A stretch of DNA of 64,000 bases from Eledone cirrhosa (taxonomy: Eukaryota). The stretch is taken from the NCBI GenBank assembly GCA_964016885.1, contig OZ024753.1:19530001-19594000 (forward strand). Reading direction: 5' to 3'. The translations under genes were made by a program, and so were the position numbers. This document shows positions 54,001-64,000 of this stretch, in pieces. The notes beneath the pieces were generated by a model, which was not told where the DNA came from, did not search any database, and worked only from the letters and a program-made list of their open reading frames with translations. Every line of letters starts with the position of its first letter. Within the stretch, counting starts at the first letter, position 1.

Positions 54001-54042
54001 AAAACTGTACTGAGACCAACTATTTTAGTGTAGTACACTGTA
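1..54042. repeat. 32-bp tandem satellite array, open at the left window edge
   Basis: Continuous repeats of ACTGAGAC(T/C)AACTATGACAGTAGTAACACTGT with scattered substitutions and occasional 28-33 bp indel monomers. I saw no foreign insertion or orientation switch. The last degenerate unit ends ...TTAGTGTAGTACACTGTA near 54042. Confidence 0.99.
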
Positions 54043-54083
54043 TGTGTTCTATAACTGGCAGTGGCACACACACGCTAACTTTG

Positions 54084-54487
54084 CTAGTCACCAGTTGATA
54101 GGCAACCAGAAAGAAACCAAATTGCATGTGTCCAATCACCAAAGAGCCGAACTCCTACTGTCATCGCTTTCATCTCTCTCGCCCTCTCCATTTCTCTGTA
54201 TTCTGAATAAACGGGTCCCACGTGATGGCCATCCCACAGCCCCGGAGGACAGAATAGAAACGGCGTTTCCTCGGAGGAAGGTAAGGTGATGCACTTGAAG
54301 AGCCATTCCAGGTCGCGAGGCTCACACTTGCGGCTGGCCAGCTCAGCGTCTACGGTGGTATGTAGGTAGGTAGCCCTAGGGTCAAGGACACGAGATGACT
54401 CCACTGCCAAGCGCACGACCGTAAACCTGTCGGAGAACGACTGGTACTTGGAAAGTTTGCCCTCCACTGTTCGAAGTGCAGCAGAAC
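54084..54487 (-). CDS. Putative coding exon of an unidentified protein (possibly a terminal exon)
   Basis: GC-richer island with a stop-free minus frame (SAALRTVEGKLSKYQSFSDRFTVVRLAVESSRVLDPRATYLHTTVDAELASRKCEPRDLEWLFKCITLP...STGD*). It is preceded by AT-rich sequence ending ACTAACCCAG (acceptor CAG at 54490-54488). No family recognised, and the 3' boundary is uncertain because internal GT donors are possible. Confidence 0.5.
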
Positions 54488-54526
54488 CTGGGTTAGTATT
54501 TTATTACATTTTGTGGCAAAGAATTG

Positions 54527-54622
54527 CGTCCCTTTACGTTCAGTGTTCAAATCACGGAGAGATTAGCTTTGCCTTTGTTCATAGCGGGGTTGTTAAAATA
54601 GAGTATCTCAATGGCACCAGTA
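54527..54622 (+). mobile_element. Old degenerate fragment of the tRNA-derived SINE family
   Basis: CGTCCCTTTACGTTCAGTGTTCAAATCACGG...CTTTGCCTTTG...GGGGTTGTTAAAATAGAGTA aligns by eye to the B-box and core of the SINE at 54691-54874. Confidence 0.7.
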
Positions 54623-54690
54623 ACATATCTCCTCCTACCAAATTGTTGGCCTGGAACCAACATCAGAAACCATTATTCGATTATATTAAT

Positions 54691-54874
54691 GGCGGTGGAT
54701 TGGCAGTATCAGTAGAGGGTTGGACGCTATGCTTTCCAGCATAGTTACGTCCCTTTACGATCTGAGTTCAAATCCCGCCGAGGTTGACTTTGCCTTTCAT
54801 CCTTACGGAGTCGATAAAATAAAGTACCAGTAATGAACTGGGTAATTGCTCGCCTTGTGCCTAAAGTAGAAACA
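54691..54874 (+). mobile_element. tRNA-derived SINE, full length, octopod-like family
   Basis: GGCGG start, A-box-like TGGCAGTATCAG, B-box GAGTTCAAATCC and core GACTTTGCCTTTCATCC...GTCGATAAAATAAAGTACCAG. Flanked by ATTAAT direct repeats (54685-54690, 54875-54880). Second copy at 62205-62383. Family assignment is from recollection of octopus SINEs. Confidence 0.9.
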
Positions 54875-55167
54875 ATTAATGTTTTTAAAACACGTTGGAT
54901 TTCATGAACTACTCTCATCATTAGTATAGGTCTATCATCATGTAGAATAGCAAAACTGACGACATTCCAGCTGACTGAGAAAAAAAAGCATTATCGCCAT
55001 AACTGGATAATCACAATAAGTAGATTCAATGACCATTATTAAATAATATTGAACAACCAAGAAAAAGACATAGAAAAGACTTGTAAATAGATATATATCG
55101 CTAAGTATATATTAACATATGAGAAAGATAAAGTAAAGGATCATCTGCCCATACGCAAAATACTGTG

Positions 55168-55578
55168 AATTACCTCATAGCGGCAAATGGCAACTTCTTT
55201 TCCCGCCTTTTAGGTGTATTTACCCTATTTTATGAGTTAATTTATAGCATCTCTGTAAAAGAGCATACCTTCCTTTACATTAATACTATATTCCTAGCGC
55301 TTCAAAATGTAGTCCCTCGTCTATGTATATCGTCTCTATGCCTGCCCGGCTGTTGTTTAGCTATTTAGTTTAAAACAAGACCGGAGAGTTGTCAAGGTCC
55401 CAAAGTTCCTAGCCGATATCTGAAAGATGTGAGGCTCAATTCCTCATAGCAGCCGACGGCAACTTCGTTTTCCGTCTTTTAAAGGTCTTCACTCTATTTC
55501 ATAAACTATTTTATAGCATCTCTGCGCATGAGCACTTCATCCTTTATATTACTTCTATGATCTCAGCACTTCAAATGA
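55168..55578. repeat. Diverged ~140-bp direct duplication (55168-55309 and 55438-55578)
   Basis: Shared blocks CCTCATAGC, GGCAACTTC, TTTATAGCATCTCTG, GAGCA, TCCTTTA and CTTCAAA occur in the same order, about 270 bp apart. Confidence 0.8.
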
Positions 55579-55719
55579 CATATTCAGCATATATTACTTG
55601 TTCCCTGGAACACAAGGGACAGAATATCATACTTTTAGGTGTCTTAGCATCACTAAATTTCCAAGTGAATGTAAGACACACACACGAACATTATAGGAAA
55701 CGAGATAATGTTGAATATC

Positions 55720-57416
55720 CAGTTCCCGTTAAAAATTGTAAGGTTTGCCAGTTCCCGTTTAAAATTGTAAGGTTTGCCTGTACCGGTTTAAATTGTAAGG
55801 TTTGACAGTACCGGTTTAAATTGTAAGGTTTGCCAGTACCGGTTTAAATTGTAAGGTTTGCCAGTACCGGTTTAAATTGTAAGGTTTGCCAGTACCGGTT
55901 TAAATTGTAAGGTTTGCCAGTACCGGGTTAAATTGTAAGGTTTGCCAGCACCCGTTTAAAATTGTAAGGTTTGACATTACCGGTTTAAATTGTAAGATTT
56001 GACAGTACCCGTTTAAATTGTAAGGTTTGCCAGCACCCGTTTAAATTGTAAGGTTTGCCAGTACCGGTTTAAAATTGTAAGGTTTGACAGTACCCGTTTA
56101 AATTGTAAGGTTTGCCAGTACCCGTTTAAAATTGTAAGGTTTGCCAGTACCGGTTTAAATTGTAAGGTTTGACAGCACCGGTTTAAAATTGTAAGGTTTG
56201 ACAGTACCGGTTTAAAATTGTAAGGTTTGACAGTACCGGTTTAAAATTGTAAGGTTTGCCAGCACCCGTTTAAATTGTAAGGTTTGCCAGTACCCGTTTA
56301 AAATTGTAAGGTTTGCCAGTACCGGTTTAAATTGTAAGGTTTGACAGTGCCGGTTTAAAATTGTAAGGTTTGACAGTACCGGTTTAATATTGTAAGGTTT
56401 GACAGTACCGGTTTAATATTGTAAGGTGTGACAGTAGCAGTTTAAATTGATAGTTTGTCAGTACCGGTTTAAATTGTAAGTTTTTAGAGTACCGGTTTAA
56501 ATTGTAAGGTTTGCCAGTACCGGTTTAAAATTGTAAGGTTTGCCAGTTCCCGTTTAAATTGTAAGGTTTGCCAGTACCGGTTTAAATTGTAAGGTTTGCC
56601 AGCACCGGTTTAAAATTGTAAGGTTTGACAGTACCGGTTTAAAATTGTAATGTTTGACAGTACCGGTTTAAATTGTAAGGTTTGCCAGCACCGGTTTAAT
56701 ATTGTAAGGTTTGACAGTACCGGTTTAAATCGTAAGGTTTGCCAGTACCGGTTTAAAATTGTAAGGTTTGACAGTACCGGTTGAAAATTGTAAGGTTTGA
56801 GAGTACCAGTTTAAAATTGTAAGGTTTGACAGTACCGGTTTAAATTGTAAGGTCTGACAGTACCGGTTGAAAATTGTATGGTTTAAGAGTACCCGTTTAA
56901 AAGTGTAAGGTTTGCCAGTTCCCGTTTAAATTGTAAGGTTTGCCAGTACCGGTTTAAAATTGAAAGATTTGACAGTACCGGTTTAAATTGTAAGGTTTAA
57001 CAGTACCGGTTTAAATTGTAAGGTTTGCCAGCACCCGTTTAAAATTGTAAGGTTTGACAGTACCGGTTTAAGTTGTAAGGATTGCCAGCACCGGTTTAAC
57101 ATTGTAAGGTTTGACAGTACCGGTTTAAATTGTAAGGTTTGACAATACCTGTTTAAATTGTAAGGTTTGACAGTACCGTTTAAAATTGTAAGGGTTGCCA
57201 GTACCCGTTTAAAATTGTAAGGATTTCCAGTACCGGTTTTAAATTGTAAGATTTGCCAGCACCGGTTTAATATTGTAGGTTTGACAGTATCGCTTTAAAA
57301 TTGTAAAATTTGACAGTACCCGTTTAAAATTGTAAGGTTTGAGAGTACCGGTTTAAAATTGTAAGGTTTGCCAGAACCCATTTAAAAATGAAAGGTTTCC
57401 TTGTACCCGTTTATAA
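55720..57416. repeat. 28/29-bp minisatellite, about 60 units
   Basis: Unit CAGTACCGGTTTAAA(A)TTGTAAGGTTTG(C/A), with period 28 measured at 55806 to 55834. It contains the ACCGGT and TTTAAA palindromes and decays toward the right end. Confidence 0.98.
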
Positions 57417-57666
57417 TTCAAACCTTTCCCAGAACCATACATAAAAGAAAAGTTAAAACGATCGATACGGAAATGCATAATTAGTCTGTTGAAATAGGAG
57501 TAACTTTGAGTTAAACCGCCTTGACAACACAAAATCTTGATACTTGAGATTCTAGAACAAAATAAAATTAAATTAAGGAATCCATCGGAACCATTTTCAT
57601 AATCTTTTTCCCTTTGAGGATATTTTGTGAATTTGAGAAACAAATTATTAACTTGAAATCCTGACA

Positions 57667-57812
57667 TACGAGGGTAGGCTGAAAAGTTCATAGGCTGACT
57701 ACGAATGCAGTAATTTCAACTCTTTTTATTAATAACTGCATTATTTATTTCTAGGGCCAATGTTGAAAAGTAAACCTCATTTGGTCATTCCATAAGAGAT
57801 AGTTGGTCAGCC
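57667..57812. mobile_element. Tc1/mariner-type non-autonomous remnant
   Basis: TACGAGGGTAGGCTGAAAAGTTCATAGGCTGAC resembles a mariner TIR (TA + CGAGGG...CTGAAAAGT). Only a short complementary remnant, GTCAGCC (57806-57812), is left on the right. Confidence 0.6.
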
Positions 57813-58489
57813 AGGTTTAAAGTTGCCAAAGTAAACGGTATATCAGGACGGCACTGATATGATTCTATCAGGAGTTACGGGTCCTTACAGATATATAGCC
57901 GGGCTTCTATACCTCAAAGCAATGTGTCATTCCCGCCACGAATCTCAGGGCTTCCCTATGACTGTAATAAAGCCCAGTTTAAATAAAATTTACTTTGCAC
58001 CTGACAGGTAATATATATTTCCCACCGCTCATTGAAGTTTCTTCAAGTCATCGTTTCCATTACTAATTATTCCTGGTTCTAATTTTTCTTGGTAAGACTA
58101 TGTACGTTTAAGCTGACTCTCGTAGATGCCAGAGCTTTGGTTTTAACTTTAGAGTGGCATGACATGTAATCCTCATGACAAGTTCACTTTCTTTCATTAA
58201 ATATAACTTAATATGGAAAAATCTATTTTCAAAAAACAATATCAAGTATTCTTCAATCGACTTAGTGAGAGATAAAGCTGAGATACTGGAGAAGCCAAAA
58301 TATATAACTGAGGAATATTCTATTAAAAATCTGAAAGTTATGTGTAGTTTGATTAGTAGGATAGTGATAGAAACAGAATGGAAGCAAATTCATACGTTTT
58401 ATACTAAGAATGTACATGTACATATACATATATCATGTACATACACATCGGGTGAGAAATAAATACATACACAAAGAAACACACACACG

Positions 58490-58499
58490 TATATATATA

Positions 58500-58585
<86 letters not shown>

Positions 58586-58586
58586 A

Positions 58587-58675
<89 letters not shown>

Positions 58676-58827
58676 AATATATATATAAGTATATAAATAT
58701 ATATGTATATATATATATATGTATATAAATATATATGTATATAAGTATATAAATATATATGTATATAAATATATATATATATATGTATATAAATACATAC
58801 ATATGTATATATATATATATATATATA
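58490..58827. repeat. (TA)n microsatellite with TATAAA/TATG interruptions
   Basis: Direct reading. Confidence 0.98.
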
Positions 58828-58904
58828 CGTAGGTCCCGGGTTGAGTCGGGGATAACCACAGTAAGTAAGGTACTCAATACATGGCAGAGTAAATTTTTTT
58901 ATTT

Positions 58905-59144
58905 TATAGAAGGAGCTTCCGCATCGACTGCGTCGGCGCACAACGTGTGCGCGCGCGACATGCACCGCACGCTTCGCACCAGATAAATGAACCACTGCTC
59001 GGCGACGGCCCCGTCTCTTCTCAATCGAGTGAGCGAAGAAACTACTCCGTAGTTTCTTCGCTCACTGGATTGCGAAGCGTGCGGTGCATGTCGCGCGCGC
59101 ACACGTTGTGCGCCGATGCAGCCGATGCGGAAGCTCCTTCTATA
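58905..59144. repeat. CpG-rich foldback (palindromic MITE-like) element
   Basis: Left arm 58905-58978 plus 59024-59045 pairs with right arm 59049-59144 (96 bp, 3 mismatches by eye), with loop TCC. The left arm has a 45-nt insertion (58979-59023). Confidence 0.92.
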
Positions 59145-59242
59145 TATATATACATATATTATATATGTATATAAATATATTTCGTTTCTGAATTTGTTTA
59201 GCAAGATTCTTTATCTGAAATCGTGTGTTGAAACCGATATTG

Positions 59243-59561
<319 letters not shown>

Positions 59562-60297
59562 TATAAAGAATTAGTATGTCTACCCACATATATATACAGA
59601 TTTCATACCTATGCTAGCAAATATATGGGTTTTGTCTTAGTAACTTTGTGGTTCAATGCAAGGGGATGCAGAACAATTATATGAAAGACGTAAAATAAGA
59701 AAATTATAAAGATTTACTTACGAAAATTTCACTCCAACTAATTACTTTCTGAAAGGGAATAAACATGGTCCGATCGGAACAACATGGTGAAAAATCCTTT
59801 CCTCATCAGGGAGGTCTATTCTCAGCTAAGTTTCCTGGCAATGCGTGGACACAGGGAACTTATACAAAAATAATTCAGTGGATGGAAAAAAGCAAGCGAG
59901 GACTAAATTCCAGGACATTGAAAAAATCACTGCCTACTTGGTCGGTGGCAAGTTCAAAAGAATCGAGCACGTGACATCGAGGTTAATCAGTGAGGAGTGG
60001 GGTGCTAATAAGACACAGTTGCCTGACTATTACTATGAACCATAGTAGTAGTTTTGGCAAATGTTTGCTCAACAAAATAATTTCGAGATAATTATAAAGA
60101 ATTAGTATATCTACCAACAAATATATACAGATGCATACCTATGCTAGCAAATATATAGGTTCTTTCTTGGTAACTTTGTGGTTCAATGCAAGGGGATGCA
60201 GAACAATTATATGAAAGACGTAAAATAAGAAAATTATAAAAATTAACTTACTTACTAAAATTTCACTCCAACTAATTAGTTCCTGAAAGGGAATAAA
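59562..60297 (-). mobile_element. Retrozyme-like / Penelope-dependent non-autonomous element (~1.4 tandem monomers)
   Basis: ~200-bp direct repeats (59562-59763 and 60093-60297, offset ~531-534) around a unique core, bounded by (TA)n on both sides. A hammerhead fold spans the repeat/core junction on the minus strand. Confidence 0.65.
59732..59813 (-). ncRNA. Type I hammerhead ribozyme fold, probably partly decayed
   Basis: Minus strand reads stem I CUCC, CUGAUGA (59809-59803), stem II GAAAGG...CCUUUC with an internal UCCGAUCGGA palindrome, GAAA (59749-59746), GUAAUUAG, UU^, GGAG. The second repeat copy has a perfect CUAAUUAG palindrome in stem III but GGAA instead of GAAA. Confidence 0.7.
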
Positions 60298-60631
60298 TAT
60301 ATATGTATGTATATATATATATATATATATCTAAAAATATATGTATGTATATATATATATATATAAATATATATGTATATATATATATATATGTATATAA
60401 ATATATAGGTATATATATATATGTATATAAATATATATGTATATATATATATGTATATAAATTTATATATATATATATTTATATGTGTATATATATATAT
60501 ATGTATATAAATATATATATGTATATATATATATATGTATATATATTACATATGTATATATATATATGTATATAAATATATATATATACATATGTAATAT
60601 ATATACATATATATGTATACATATATATATT

Positions 60632-60681
<50 letters not shown>

Positions 60682-60761
60682 AATATATATGTATATATCT
60701 ATGTATATAAATATATATGTACATATATATGTATATAAATATATATGTACATATATATGTA
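60298..60761. repeat. Compound (TA)n / TATATG / TATAAA microsatellite
   Basis: Direct reading. Confidence 0.97.
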
Positions 60762-61371
60762 TGTCAGGTCACCAGTTGGTGCTACTGGTAACATGTATCC
60801 CAGTACAACCTGTCTCATGGTCGGGTCGTTGGCGACTAAACTGGCAACCCCACCAAGGTTTCTTGGTGAGGAGGATGACTTTGGACATCCTGCAGGACTA
60901 AAAACAAAACCTGTCAAAGGGCAAAGGAGCTCTTAAGAGTCAATGGCCATCCAAAATCACCGGGAGAGATGACCCCTTACCCTTTGTCAAGGCAGAATTC
61001 TAGGAGAAGGAAAACTCTGATATAACACCTGCAACCCTGATGGTATCCAATGATGTTGACTTGTTCTTCTTTTTGGTAAATATCATCTTGGTTAAGAGAG
61101 TGGGACTGGCTTTGTGCAGTGCCTTTGCTCACTATAAAAGCTTCACGGCACAGGCATTGCTTTATATCTGGAGATCTCTCTGCACTTGTCGTCACATGGT
61201 ACCATGGGCCCAACACTATGTGTCAATAATTGTCACAAGTGTAGTCTTTGTACCAGAGTTTTCAAGTCGCTGGCTGGACTAAAAAGTCACACTCGTTCAG
61301 CGCATCAGTAGGGGTTCTCCTACATGGATATAAAGTAGTGGCCGTACTCGAAAACGAGTTGGCAGCCACCA
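60762..61371 (+). mobile_element. Internally deleted RTE-clade LINE derivative (5'UTR joined to 3' end)
   Basis: RTE 5'UTR-like motif CTAGGAGAAGGAAAACTCTGA near 61000-61020. C-terminal C2H2 finger [23 protein letters not shown] (61240-61311), of the type found at RTE/BovB ORF ends. 3' hairpin ACTCG-AAAA-CGAGT just before the (TA)n tail. No endonuclease or RT seen. Confidence 0.75.
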
Positions 61372-61406
61372 TATAAATATATATGTATATATGTATATGT
61401 ATATAC

Positions 61407-61439
<33 letters not shown>

Positions 61440-61566
61440 TAAATATATATGTATATACATATATATGTATATATATATGTATATAAATATATAGGTATAT
61501 ATATATATGTATATAAATATATATTATATATATGTATATAAATTTATATATATATATATATATATA
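61372..61566. repeat. Compound (TA)n microsatellite
   Basis: Direct reading. Confidence 0.97.
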
Positions 61567-62841
61567 TATTATATTTAGAGTTTAAACTCAGTCATTTACA
61601 ATTAATCAGCTCAAAGAAAGAAGCATTTCCGAGCAGTGAAATACAAGTTAATATATATTAATATATGCTAAACACATACGTGTTTGTATTGTAAGAGACA
61701 AAGTTAGCTAGAATGAAATAAACTAATTAAAATGAATACAATTTGTCTGTCTCGATAGACAAGCATATATTGGCAAAAGCCGTGATTCCTGGACAAATTT
61801 AAATTTCAAAATCCAAACCTGCTCCGTAGATGAATTTGAACTTCGAAACCTAAATATATTTCGCAACGATGGTATAAAAATTGAAATATAAAAAAATTGA
61901 AATATACAAAGTGAACTATTCAAATCTTCTGTTCTTATCAACAGGAATCCAGTAAAATTAGTACATTTCACCTCCAAAAATTTTGCAGGACTGATTCACA
62001 CGTGGTATAATCAGCTATACTAGCCATCCCATACTCCCGGTGCTAGAAATAACAGCCGTTTATATGGGATTAAAAATTATTCTACGGTTAAGGAGCAATA
62101 ATATTATATTATATTTAGAGTTTAAACTTAAAGTCATTTACAATTAATCAGCTCAAAGAAAGAAGCATTTCCGAGCAGTGAAATACAAGTTAATATATAT
62201 TAATTGTTTCTACTTTAGGCACAAGGCCAGCAATTACCCAGTGCATTACTGGTACTTTATTTTATCTACCCGTAAGGATGAAAGGCAAAGTCAACCTCGG
62301 CGGGATTTGAACTCAGATCGTAAAGGGACGTAACTATGCTGGAAAGCATGGCGTCCGACCCTCTACCAATACTGCCAATCCACATATTAATATATGATAA
62401 ACACATACGTGTTTGTATTGTAAGAGACACAATTAGCTAGAATGAAATAAACTAATTAAAATGAATACAATTTGTCTGTCTCGATATAAGTCAATAAAGA
62501 CAAGCTTATATTGGCAAAAGCCGTGCTTCCTGGACAAATTTAAATTTCAAAATCCAAACCTGCTCCGTAGATGAATTTGAACTTCGAAACCTAATTTTTA
62601 ATCCGATATAAACGGCTGTTATTTCTAGCACCGGGACTATGGGATGGCTCGTATAGCTGATTATACCACGTGTGAATCAGTCCTGCAAAATTTTTGGAGG
62701 CGAAATGTACTAATTTTACTGGATTCCTGTTGATAAGCACAGAAGATTTGAATATTTCACTTTGTATATTTCAATTTTTTTATATTTCAATTTTTATACC
62801 ATCGTTGCAAAACATATTTAGGTTTCGAAGTTCAAATTCAT
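61566..62841. repeat. ~540-bp tandem duplication with an inverted segment in the second copy
   Basis: 61566-61853 is repeated directly at ~62106-62594 (interrupted by a SINE). 61830-62079 is repeated as its reverse complement at 62592-62841. The ORF track gives the same peptide on opposite strands (61723..61977 minus, 62694..63023 plus). Confidence 0.92.
62205..62383 (-). mobile_element. tRNA-derived SINE (same family as 54691-54874), 5' end 4 nt short
   Basis: About 8 differences in 180 nt from the first copy. 8-bp TSD ATATTAAT (62197-62204, 62384-62391). The empty site is preserved in the paralogous copy near 61650-61670. Confidence 0.93.
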
Positions 62842-63105
62842 GTTTTCTTTCCCTCTATATTTCCTTCTTCCCCCCATCTCTTCCTAGTCCCTCCACCCCA
62901 GAACTCCTTCCCTGTCTTATTTTCACCTTTTCGCCTACCTCGATGCAGCCCATCGGTCCTCTGTTGCCTCAGTACCCCCACCCTCCAAATTTTAAGATAG
63001 AATTGGCCGATTACGCTTTTTAATGCAGATGTGTTAGACCCCAGTAAATTGTTTTATTTCTGGTTGCTGCTCCATTTCTGTGGTTTCTAAGTTTCTTAGT
63101 GTTAC

Positions 63106-63185
63106 TTTTGTATTAGTATTTTGTATTAGTATTTTGAATTAATATCTTGTATTAGTATTTTTGTAGTAGTATTTTAGTATTTTTG
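63106..63185. repeat. 13-bp degenerate tandem repeat (TTTTGTATTAGTA), about 6 copies
   Basis: Direct reading. Confidence 0.8.
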
Positions 63186-63698
63186 TTCTCAACTTATTAA
63201 CCTGTCATTGTAAGATAGCATTGGCTGATTACTAACTATTTATAACAGTGGTGTTAGACCCCTGTAGAGCCGGCTTCATAAAATTCTTTCACTACAATCT
63301 CGTATTTAGTATTTTTCTCCACCTATTAATCTTTTCTATAGCTTAGCAATACCAATGAGAGATTTGTTGATTGTGGAAATGGAGTAGTAACCAGAAATTG
63401 TTCTTTTAATATATTTATTTCCTTATTTTTATAATGTTTTTTTTTACTCCCTTTCGATTTACCTATCCTTTCAACTCCCCCCTCCCCTTCTCCGGTACAC
63501 TTTTTTCGACTTTCTATTCATTATCCTTAGAATCTGGTGTATAGATTTCACTTTCAACGCTTGATTGAGTTTCCCCCACTCCCTCTTTCTTCAACCGGCA
63601 AGTTGAGCCACCCCTACCTCCAACCAAATGCAACACATTTTTACAAGACATTTTTGACCAGTCCTTTTGAGAATTACTATCTTCCCATATAAGGAATT

Positions 63699-63794
63699 AC
63701 CCCCTGAGAAGTTCGGCTATTTATTTAACAGGCTAAATATTCTTATTTAGTCCAGAATTAGCCGTCGAAACGGCTTGAGCTCTGCCGTCGGGGT
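63699..63794 (+). ncRNA. Type I hammerhead ribozyme fold with variant core
   Basis: Stem I ACCCC (63699-63703)/GGGGU (63790-63794); core CUGAGAAG (63704-63711); long stem II CGGCUA/UAGCCG enclosing GGCUAAAUA-UUCU-UAUUUAGUC; GAAA (63767-63770); stem III ACGGC/GCCGU with loop UUGAGCUCU; GUC^ at 63789. Confidence 0.75.
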
Positions 63795-63804
63795 CATACG
63801 TGTT

Positions 63805-63806
<2 letters not shown>

Positions 63807-63869
<63 letters not shown>

Positions 63870-63880
63870 GTATATATATA
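63807..63880. repeat. (TA)n microsatellite
   Basis: Direct reading. Confidence 0.97.
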
Positions 63881-64000
63881 TCCTCTTTGACGCTACATTT
63901 CTCTAGATGCTAATTAGTTACATAACAATTCACAAATATATATATATATACACTATTTCTATGGCACAATGCCCCCAATTGAATTCCATCCTAATTCCAC

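Follow-up and report, generated by a model that had tools for sequence, protein, structure and literature searches.

The hammerhead ribozymes of Penelope-like elements (PLEs) combine a short helix I with a long helix II and a palindromic helix III, leave one base unpaired between positions 9 and 10.1, and follow the consensus CUGANGAH G..C GAAA N palindrome N U H, with GUU in many of the aligned rows (PMC4209133; this and the other papers are cited here for those parts of their text that were available to us). Circles were proposed as PLE templates in 2014 (PMC4209133), and the traits documented for these elements include internal initiation at two sites, nicking of AT-rich DNA, a preference for (TA)n and partial tandems (PMC11167929, PMC8557442). 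In vitro, the PLE named PAc initiates within its own RNA and takes uncut RNA as its main template; in the available text, no RNA ends map to the cut site and ribozyme mutants insert equally well (PMC11167929). Animal retrozymes are treated as non-autonomous PLE derivatives of 51-972 bp (10.64898/2026.07.22.740005); their cut monomers are ligated far better by RtcB than by self-ligation, and most of their circles leave the ribozyme free, except some of the mussel ones (PMC7229834). In plant retrozymes and viroids the ribozyme is blocked by complementary sequence (PMC7229834, PMC4918200). As for cephalopods, 235 Hammerhead_1 matches have been counted in the giant squid (PMC6962438), and the repeat annotation of O. 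vulgaris holds 31 recently active PLE families, the words hammerhead, ribozyme and retrozyme being absent, on a term search, from the available part of that article (PMC13282606). The literature on octopus and cephalopod hammerheads, Penelope and circular RNA that we consulted describes no family such as the one reported here, the available parts of PMC7761336 and PMC1636495 having nothing specific on the subject; Repbase, Dfam and the supplements may hold it or a similar clamp.

The window, by which we mean the whole 64-kb stretch of Eledone cirrhosa DNA analysed here, carries near its right end a 736-bp insert within (TA)n, built of two direct repeats of about 204 bp around a unique core. 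The repeats are 91.7% identical over 206 columns (BLASTN) and differ by 12 substitutions, half of them transitions and half transversions (six each), and by two indels of 1 and 4 nt. The more-than-unit-length insert that an initial annotation had read from the letters, with repeats of about 200 bp in a (TA)n setting, is therefore real and amounts to 1.38 units. Its parts are as follows; on the minus strand, which carries the ribozyme, coordinates descend from 5' to 3'.

59562..60297, minus: whole insertion, 1.38 units of a 531-534-bp non-coding repeat, from alignment; both ends ambiguous through microhomology
60093..60297, minus: direct repeat of 205 bp, upstream (5') in the RNA sense and resembling a pseudo-LTR, from alignment
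59562..59763, minus: downstream (3') direct repeat, 202 bp, from alignment; its left end is the presumed start of reverse transcription
59764..60092, minus: unique core, from the repeat alignment
59251..59565, no strand: left (TA)n-type target array, from repeat detection
60297..60758, no strand: right (TA)n-type target array, from repeat detection
60208..60213, minus: TATATG, where family copies may, at most suggestively, have a second 3' end, 115 nt short of the one in the window copy
59732..59813, minus: complete type I hammerhead of PLE type, from descriptor, local fold and family bases; cleavage predicted
59813-59810/59735-59732, minus: helix I, 4 bp, from descriptor and fold
59809-59803, minus: CUGAUGA, from sequence
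59802, minus: extra base after CUGAUGA, G here and C in the family, from family comparison
59801-59796/59756-59751, minus: helix II, 6 bp, from descriptor and fold
59757..59795, minus: 39-nt loop II, hypervariable in the family by substitution and indel rows
59750, minus: extra A between helix II and GAAA, from sequence
59749-59746, minus: GAAA, from sequence
59746-59737, minus: helix III, broken at 59745 in the window copy, from sequence
59736/59735, minus: predicted cut site, after GUU
59717..59830, minus: distal extension of helix I predicted by folding, past a 4x4 internal loop, 59824-59818 with 59727-59721 and 59830-59827 with 59720-59717
60264..60290, minus: 3' half of a second hammerhead, with helix II arm, GGAA replacing GAAA, intact palindrome and cut site 60270/60269, from descriptor and sequence
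60106..60155, minus: predicted 21-bp hairpin, 12 nt upstream of the presumed start site; the family base at 60120 mends a mismatch
59984..59999, minus: 16-nt segment complementary to both sides of the cut site (hereafter the clamp), from predicted pairing

Both ends of the insert share microhomology with the flanks, TATA on the left and up to ATAAA on the right. The TATA of the left end is common to the target array, and within the unit the sequence continues from it as TAATTATAAAG, so that the 3' end of the element is internal, 177 nt past the cut site. The four-base microhomology at the start site may be a matter of chance, since the sequence is so AT-rich; the PAc start site, in the available account, is not homologous to its target (PMC11167929). 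What marks PLE derivatives is partial-tandem insertion into (TA)n together with a 3' end inside the unit, and the window copy has all of it. With its 1.38 units it holds one complete hammerhead, where the tandem-array definition of an active element by Li et al. 2026 (10.64898/2026.07.22.740005), as given in the part available, calls for at least two.

A relaxed type I descriptor, run on both strands, matches exactly once in the window, on the minus strand of the insert (C3 at 59809, G12 at 59749, H17 at 59736); the other strand shows no ribozyme. When the element was shuffled with its dinucleotides kept, any descriptor match arose in 5 of 20,000 cases and a match with near-palindromic helix III in 0 of 20,000. 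The complete minus-strand hammerhead claimed at the outset is borne out, together with the 3' half of a second one and the distance of 534 nt between the two cut sites. In the local fold, helices I and II form with pair probabilities of 0.74-0.90 and helix III is not formed in the window copy; the isolated 116-nt motif is no stabler than its shuffles (z 0.48, 134/200). The initial annotation had looked to Rfam Hammerhead_1 for confirmation, and there it fared badly: Rfam gives no match within 59563-60297 at E<=10, the 80 matches in 58500-61500 are all under gathering scores and nearly all on (TA)n, and nothing in 54024-64000 is at gathering score.

Each ribozyme site bears its own lesion, as had been described: helix III is broken at one and GGAA stands for GAAA at the other. 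The description had overlooked a third lesion, the G at 59802, as well as the extra A before GAAA, which is present in both repeats and has a counterpart in one unassigned AGAAA of a published figure (PMC4209133). With a G that the consensus excludes, one broken helix III and one GGAA, the window copy is likely dead and, by comparison with the known hammerhead core, very likely so. The family bases fit the PLE consensus, its 4-5-bp helix I and long helix II included, and the extra A falls outside it (PMC4209133). Given the family base, helix III can form a 10-bp self-duplex of -9.0 kcal/mol, against -2.0 for the window copy, and forms within the monomer with a probability of about 0.12 only, which would point to cleavage as a dimer.

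A search of public runs listed nine, six of which contain part of the stretch and none of which is recorded as RNA; four of the nine, from three organisms, were aligned to one unit (59700-60240) at 80% likeness. The family accounts for 2,480 of 17.1 million contigs in X1, 47 of 8.25 million in X5 and 21 of 6.94 million in X6, and for 7,250 of 12.5 million RAD reads in X7. The contig count by itself makes this a large family, in keeping with the multi-copy element that had been expected rather than a single-copy locus; summed depth, used below, is no copy number and serves as a proxy for conserved words. Family figures come from the 40 of 149 substitution rows, 12 of 19 indel rows, 24 of 331 loose ends and 24 of 2,575 pieces that were listed, and no piece of the four aligned runs spans 59700-60240.

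Within these limits the family has what the window copy has lost. At 59745 the family base restores GAAA-CUAAUUAG-UU in 440 of 460 X7 reads, in more than 99.9% of X1 depth and in all of X5 and X6, so that the palindromic helix III deduced earlier from the consensus of the two damaged copies is indeed the majority state. At 59802, C (RNA sense) follows CUGAUGA in all four runs (562 of 587 X7 reads, 99.5% in X1). Most copies change a helix I C-G to U.G at 59813, and one base of the helix I C run is absent from 98 of 788 X7 reads. The family keeps CUGAUGA, as predicted: loose-end consensuses of divergent copies retain CUGAUGA-C-G in all four runs and then diverge. Among the listed rows, loop II (59795-59757) takes 12 of the 40 substitutions and 8 of the 12 indels; the core, the helix II arms and the clamp take none of the 40, except for the two lesions of the window copy and 59813. 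A conserved core round a freely varying loop is the pattern that selection on a ribozyme gives. In the family, the repeat has a greater summed depth than the core. One subfamily, which occurs in X1, X5, X6 and X7 and predominates in X7 (823 loose reads), has a different 5' arm of helix II directly after CUGAUGA-C-G, leftwards of 59814. Viral and prokaryote contigs contain no match to the element, and six metagenome loci with an 18-base match were set aside as chance, having nothing in common beyond 18-24 bases.

The ends of family copies bear on how these are made. Pieces beginning at 60093-60094 make up 5 of the 24 listed out of 2,575, in X1 and X6; in X1, the loose ends of 20 contigs before 60208 consist of (TA)n, and at that point summed depth about doubles. 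These are hints, confounded by contig breaks and conservation, that 3' ends fall preferentially at one or two places, 60093 and 60208, and such a PLE pattern makes the circular permutation with free ends proposed in the initial annotation doubtful. Five of the six X7 read-end piles listed (59872/59875, 60100, 60208, 60235) lie on AATT sites and were discarded as restriction ends of the RAD library, the sixth being at 59953; joints from 60224-60240 to 59700-59747 were likewise rejected as evidence of tandem arrays, being merely the repeat running beyond the edge of the aligned stretch.

The two repeats of the window copy seem to share one origin. In the aligned part of the upstream repeat, the downstream repeat carries the family base at four of four near-fixed differences (60120, 60162, 60164, 60169); at 59745 and at the 4-nt indel it is the upstream repeat that has the family state, and at the polymorphic 60208 and 60213 both repeats have the same letter. 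The window copy departs from the family by at least 13 near-fixed differences in 509 places, and this distance predicts 10.3 substitutions between repeats that were initially identical, against 12 seen. Since the numbers agree and the family bases are split between the repeats, the latter were probably identical at insertion and decayed apart by about 3% each.

The insert as a whole is non-coding. Its six open frames (35-73 aa) have no Pfam match above cut-off; no longer homologue was found, in a weak test, for the 52-aa frame that runs out of the ribozyme; and the single match of the 71-aa plus-strand frame among 1.84 billion proteins (P0001) proved spurious, a translated tandem repeat with matches of 15-19 residues summed. 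Pol III boxes amount to one B-box-like 9-mer on the plus strand, which we discount as a promoter because it is at chance level by estimate, with no A box, and to none on the ribozyme strand. No RT or GIY-YIG remnant was detected in the element. Three element motifs are absent from the available part of the Naiad, Chlamys and Hydra supplement of PMC8557442, and among the families compared there no autonomous PLE partner was found, Naiad_Ovul having no support as a partner since it is not alike by eye and is without the motifs.

The unit is predicted to be structured. The 534-nt piece between the cut sites is stabler than its shuffles as a linear molecule (z -3.0, 0/100) and as a circle (z -3.7, 0/60), and the plus strand is likewise structured (z -2.8). 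For the folding test of family bases, 27 of the 40 listed rows were used, leaving out 12 in loop II and 60092, and the 13 near-fixed ones were applied. Seven of the 13 lie in predicted helices and all seven repair a mismatch, a partly circular result as the fold was made with them; together they shift the energy by -0.1, against +9.2 +/- 5.2 for random changes of the same kind (6/150). At paired polymorphic places the predicted pair is kept in three of six cases and broken in the other three.

Within this fold, the first part of the clamp (59999-59994) is predicted to pair over 6 bp with the six bases after the cut (60269-60264), and its second part (59991-59984) over 8 bp with the eight bases preceding the cut base (59744-59737). 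The duplex, at -16.3 kcal/mol, is equalled when the core is shuffled in 6 of 3,000 cases and when a wider stretch is shuffled in 8 of 2,000, figures that are generous because the clamp bounds were chosen after seeing the fold. It is the best distant duplex, ranking first of 178 sampled 15-mers; over all 534 registers it leads at 15 and 18 nt and shares the top place at 12 nt. Its pair probabilities are 0.83-1.0 both in the circle and in the cut linear monomer, the flanking arcs measuring 264 and 239 nt, and it pairs equally well with the uncut linear junction. Summed depth over 59966-60003, which holds the clamp, is several times that over 60004-60041 in X1, X5 and X6; one X6 contig alters three of the six bases of the first half, by eye leaving two as G.U and breaking one. 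To impose the active fold takes 2.5 kcal/mol in the isolated motif and 5.6 when the clamp is left out; with the clamp in place the cost is 9.1-12.3, and in the circle it is 11.0. Wherever the clamp is present, nascent RNA included, the price is thus 9-12 kcal/mol, and cutting needs kinetics, a dimer or a protein. On these predictions the clamp would hold the cut ends together and also keep the ribozyme locked, a resemblance to plant retrozymes and a difference from most of those of animals. The idea that the upstream junction might act as a switch and release the downstream ribozyme was considered and dropped, having little support: the cost falls from 12.3 to 9.1-9.7 kcal/mol only. Beside the presumed start site, seven bases at 60099-60105 could, by eye, pair with the 3' half of the helix III palindrome, a pairing absent from the predicted best fold.

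How, then, does the element compare with the described systems, as far as the available parts of the sources describe them? With the non-LTR retrozymes of animals (PMC7229834; 10.64898/2026.07.22.740005) it shares a non-coding unit, one type I hammerhead per unit, low GC, a structured predicted circle, a more-than-unit genomic copy, length and a proposed dependence on PLEs. Theirs is a canonical hammerhead, whereas here it is of PLE type (4-bp helix I, 6-bp helix II, extra base after A9); they form tandem arrays, the present element a dispersed 1.38-mer with one full motif; and the self-pairing block of the ribozyme predicted here is reported, in the part available, just for some mussel circles (PMC7229834). 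The candidate retrozyme of the initial annotation is thus sustained in its copy number, its lack of coding and its hammerhead per unit, and has to be amended as to the motif. Three features thought unusual there are not so: 534 nt is not exceptional in the length range of retrozyme consensuses, and GUU and a helix II of 6-8 bp are common in PLE hammerheads (PMC4209133).

With the pseudo-LTR hammerheads of PLEs (PMC4209133, PMC8557442, PMC11167929) the likeness extends to the CUGANGAH G core, short helix I, long helix II, palindromic helix III and GUU, and further to the partial-tandem layout, the (TA)n target, an internal 3' end downstream of the cut site and possibly two 3' ends. The element differs in having no RT or GIY-YIG remnant, and in its extra A, its 39-nt variable loop II and its 8-nt palindrome; PLE pseudo-LTRs have a tail of 30-40 bp, whereas the possible second end of the element lies 115 nt away. 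Plant LTR retrozymes and hammerhead viroids (PMC4918200) resemble it in that a complementary segment of the circle is predicted to pair with the ribozyme and to block cutting. Their hammerhead is of type III; here a type I motif straddles the repeat edge, and the plant-type LTR retrozyme or TRIM traits, namely LTR ends with a TG start, a primer site, a purine tract and an opposite-strand ribozyme, are absent.

Taken together, we consider it very probable that the element is a non-autonomous one of PLE type, whether it moves by a circular or by a linear route. More specifically, and with moderate confidence, we favour the view that the insert, now decayed, belongs to an abundant family of non-coding repeats with a PLE-type hammerhead, and that this family borrows the reverse transcriptase and endonuclease of a PLE and travels as a clamped 534-nt RNA circle. 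Read-through RNA of intact tandem or partial-tandem copies would be cut after GUU, probably with two molecules joined by the 10-nt helix III palindrome or with a protein assisting. The clamp would then hold the 5'-OH and cyclic-phosphate ends of the 534-nt piece adjacent, with one U unpaired, as the fold predicts. To judge from mussel and axolotl retrozymes, an RtcB-type ligase would seal the ends, and the pairing of the clamp would prevent the circle from being cut again. A PLE protein would nick (TA)n and start the cDNA at the internal UAUA, 177 nt past the cut site; the cDNA would round the template, cross the junction twice and stop in loop II, leaving 1.38 units with two identical repeats. 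As comparison with the family shows, these repeats afterwards decayed independently, with lesions now at both ribozyme sites.

The alternative to be taken most seriously, which we nonetheless hold to be unlikely, is that the same PLE derivative is copied from linear read-through or multimeric RNA, by internal initiation or template jump and with no circle, the hammerhead only trimming transcripts or acting late and the clamp being an off switch in linear RNA. The behaviour of PAc in vitro, described above, is just of this kind, and the layout of the insert and the hints of preferred 3' ends suit a linear template as well; the clamp pairs also with the uncut junction and raises the cost of the active fold in nascent RNA. 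Diverged tandem units, however, would yield repeats that differ from the moment of insertion, whereas the observed divergence fits identical ones (a weak test), and a clamp that covers both sides of the cut and leaves the cut base alone free is what the ligation of a cut monomer needs.

It is also conceivable, though improbable, that the family is mobile with a hammerhead that no longer cuts, and that the clamp is a neutral remnant left behind when the junction was once duplicated in inverted orientation. Points in favour are the extra A in front of GAAA, the 39-nt loop II without an evident tertiary partner and the lack of an Rfam match; inverted copies are common by-products of PLE insertion (PMC8557442), the clamp is altered in one X6 contig, and only one of nine predicted Xenopus retrozyme dimers was cleaved in vitro (10.64898/2026.07.22.740005). 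Mussel retrozymes too are without most loop 1-loop 2 contacts (PMC7229834). A dead ribozyme would hardly be expected to keep CUGAUGA-C-G and the helix III palindrome in four runs round a hypervariable loop, or to leave core, helix II arms and clamp nearly free of listed substitutions, and the depth peak over the clamp in three runs also tells against a neutral relic. Finally, a small plus-strand LTR-type element (TRIM-like) or a local tandem duplication of one repeat copy is highly improbable: two terminal direct repeats do flank a core, and the left repeat, read by eye on the plus strand, closes with AATAAA and then CA and TGG, which resembles an LTR end with a primer site, but the start has no TG, no purine tract precedes the second repeat, the TGG lies within the hypervariable loop (59767 differs in 146 of 408 X7 reads), and a local duplication leaves unexplained both the repeats that end exactly at the two (TA)n borders and the higher family depth over the repeat.

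Returning to the clamped circle, it is tempting to go further and to see in this family a high-copy animal RNA circle with a viroid-like lock, in which one 16-nt segment, situated half-way along the unit, splints the ends and silences the hammerhead while the circle serves as PLE template for 1.38-unit (TA)n copies from fixed starts; this fuller proposal is a tentative one, and we place its chances somewhat below even. If it holds, it would give direct evidence that the minimal hammerheads of PLE type make circles and that pseudo-LTRs arise by rolling round them, in a lineage that looks octopus-like by its flanking SINE-like repeats and for which we found no retrozyme in print. The GUU, the long helix II, the 534-nt unit and the kind of element are already known; what would be new is the extra A and the long variable loop of this PLE-type ribozyme, together with a predicted lock like that of plant retrozymes and viroids. 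The role of the hammerhead in PLEs lies between the circles proposed in 2014 (PMC4209133) and the uncut RNA used in the only in vitro system (PMC11167929), and the 2020 retrozyme paper, in the part available, could not say what stops animal circles from cutting themselves again (PMC7229834). Both questions become testable with a family that is short, abundant and non-coding and has a PLE-type motif, a predicted end clamp and repeat pairs that can be dated; should our reading fail, it would be one more among many hammerhead-bearing repeats of invertebrates.

The rest of the window is also rich in repeats. A satellite array with a 32-bp unit, repeated about 1,688 times with 91% matches and free of indels, occupies 16-54023 and ends sharply at 54023, and a tandem array of alternating 28- and 29-bp units (a 57-bp dimer in about 29 copies) occupies 55732-57398. 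Two further inserts in (TA)n accompany the element. The one at 58828-59143 is G+C-rich with a long internal inverted repeat, its arms lying by eye at about 58906-59040 and 59045-59145, has a weak Rfam hairpin match and is a putative MITE- or Helitron-like insert; the other, of about 600 bp (60764-61371), directly right of the element and with no Rfam match at gathering score, is presumably a SINE or a 5' piece of a LINE. The stretch 61560-62841 is arranged as A-B-A-inverted B, 61560-61853 being repeated at 62101-62594 (92-96%) and 61830-62079 inverted at 62592-62841 (96.8%); it gives no hammerhead descriptor match, and its layout is similar to the partial tandem with inverted copy described for PLE insertions. 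A SINE-like repeat of about 195 bp, which we take to resemble octopus SINEs, is present in three copies (62199-62394, 54682-54880 and 54524-54605), the two long ones being 94% alike, and one copy interrupts the second A unit of the 61560-62841 arrangement.
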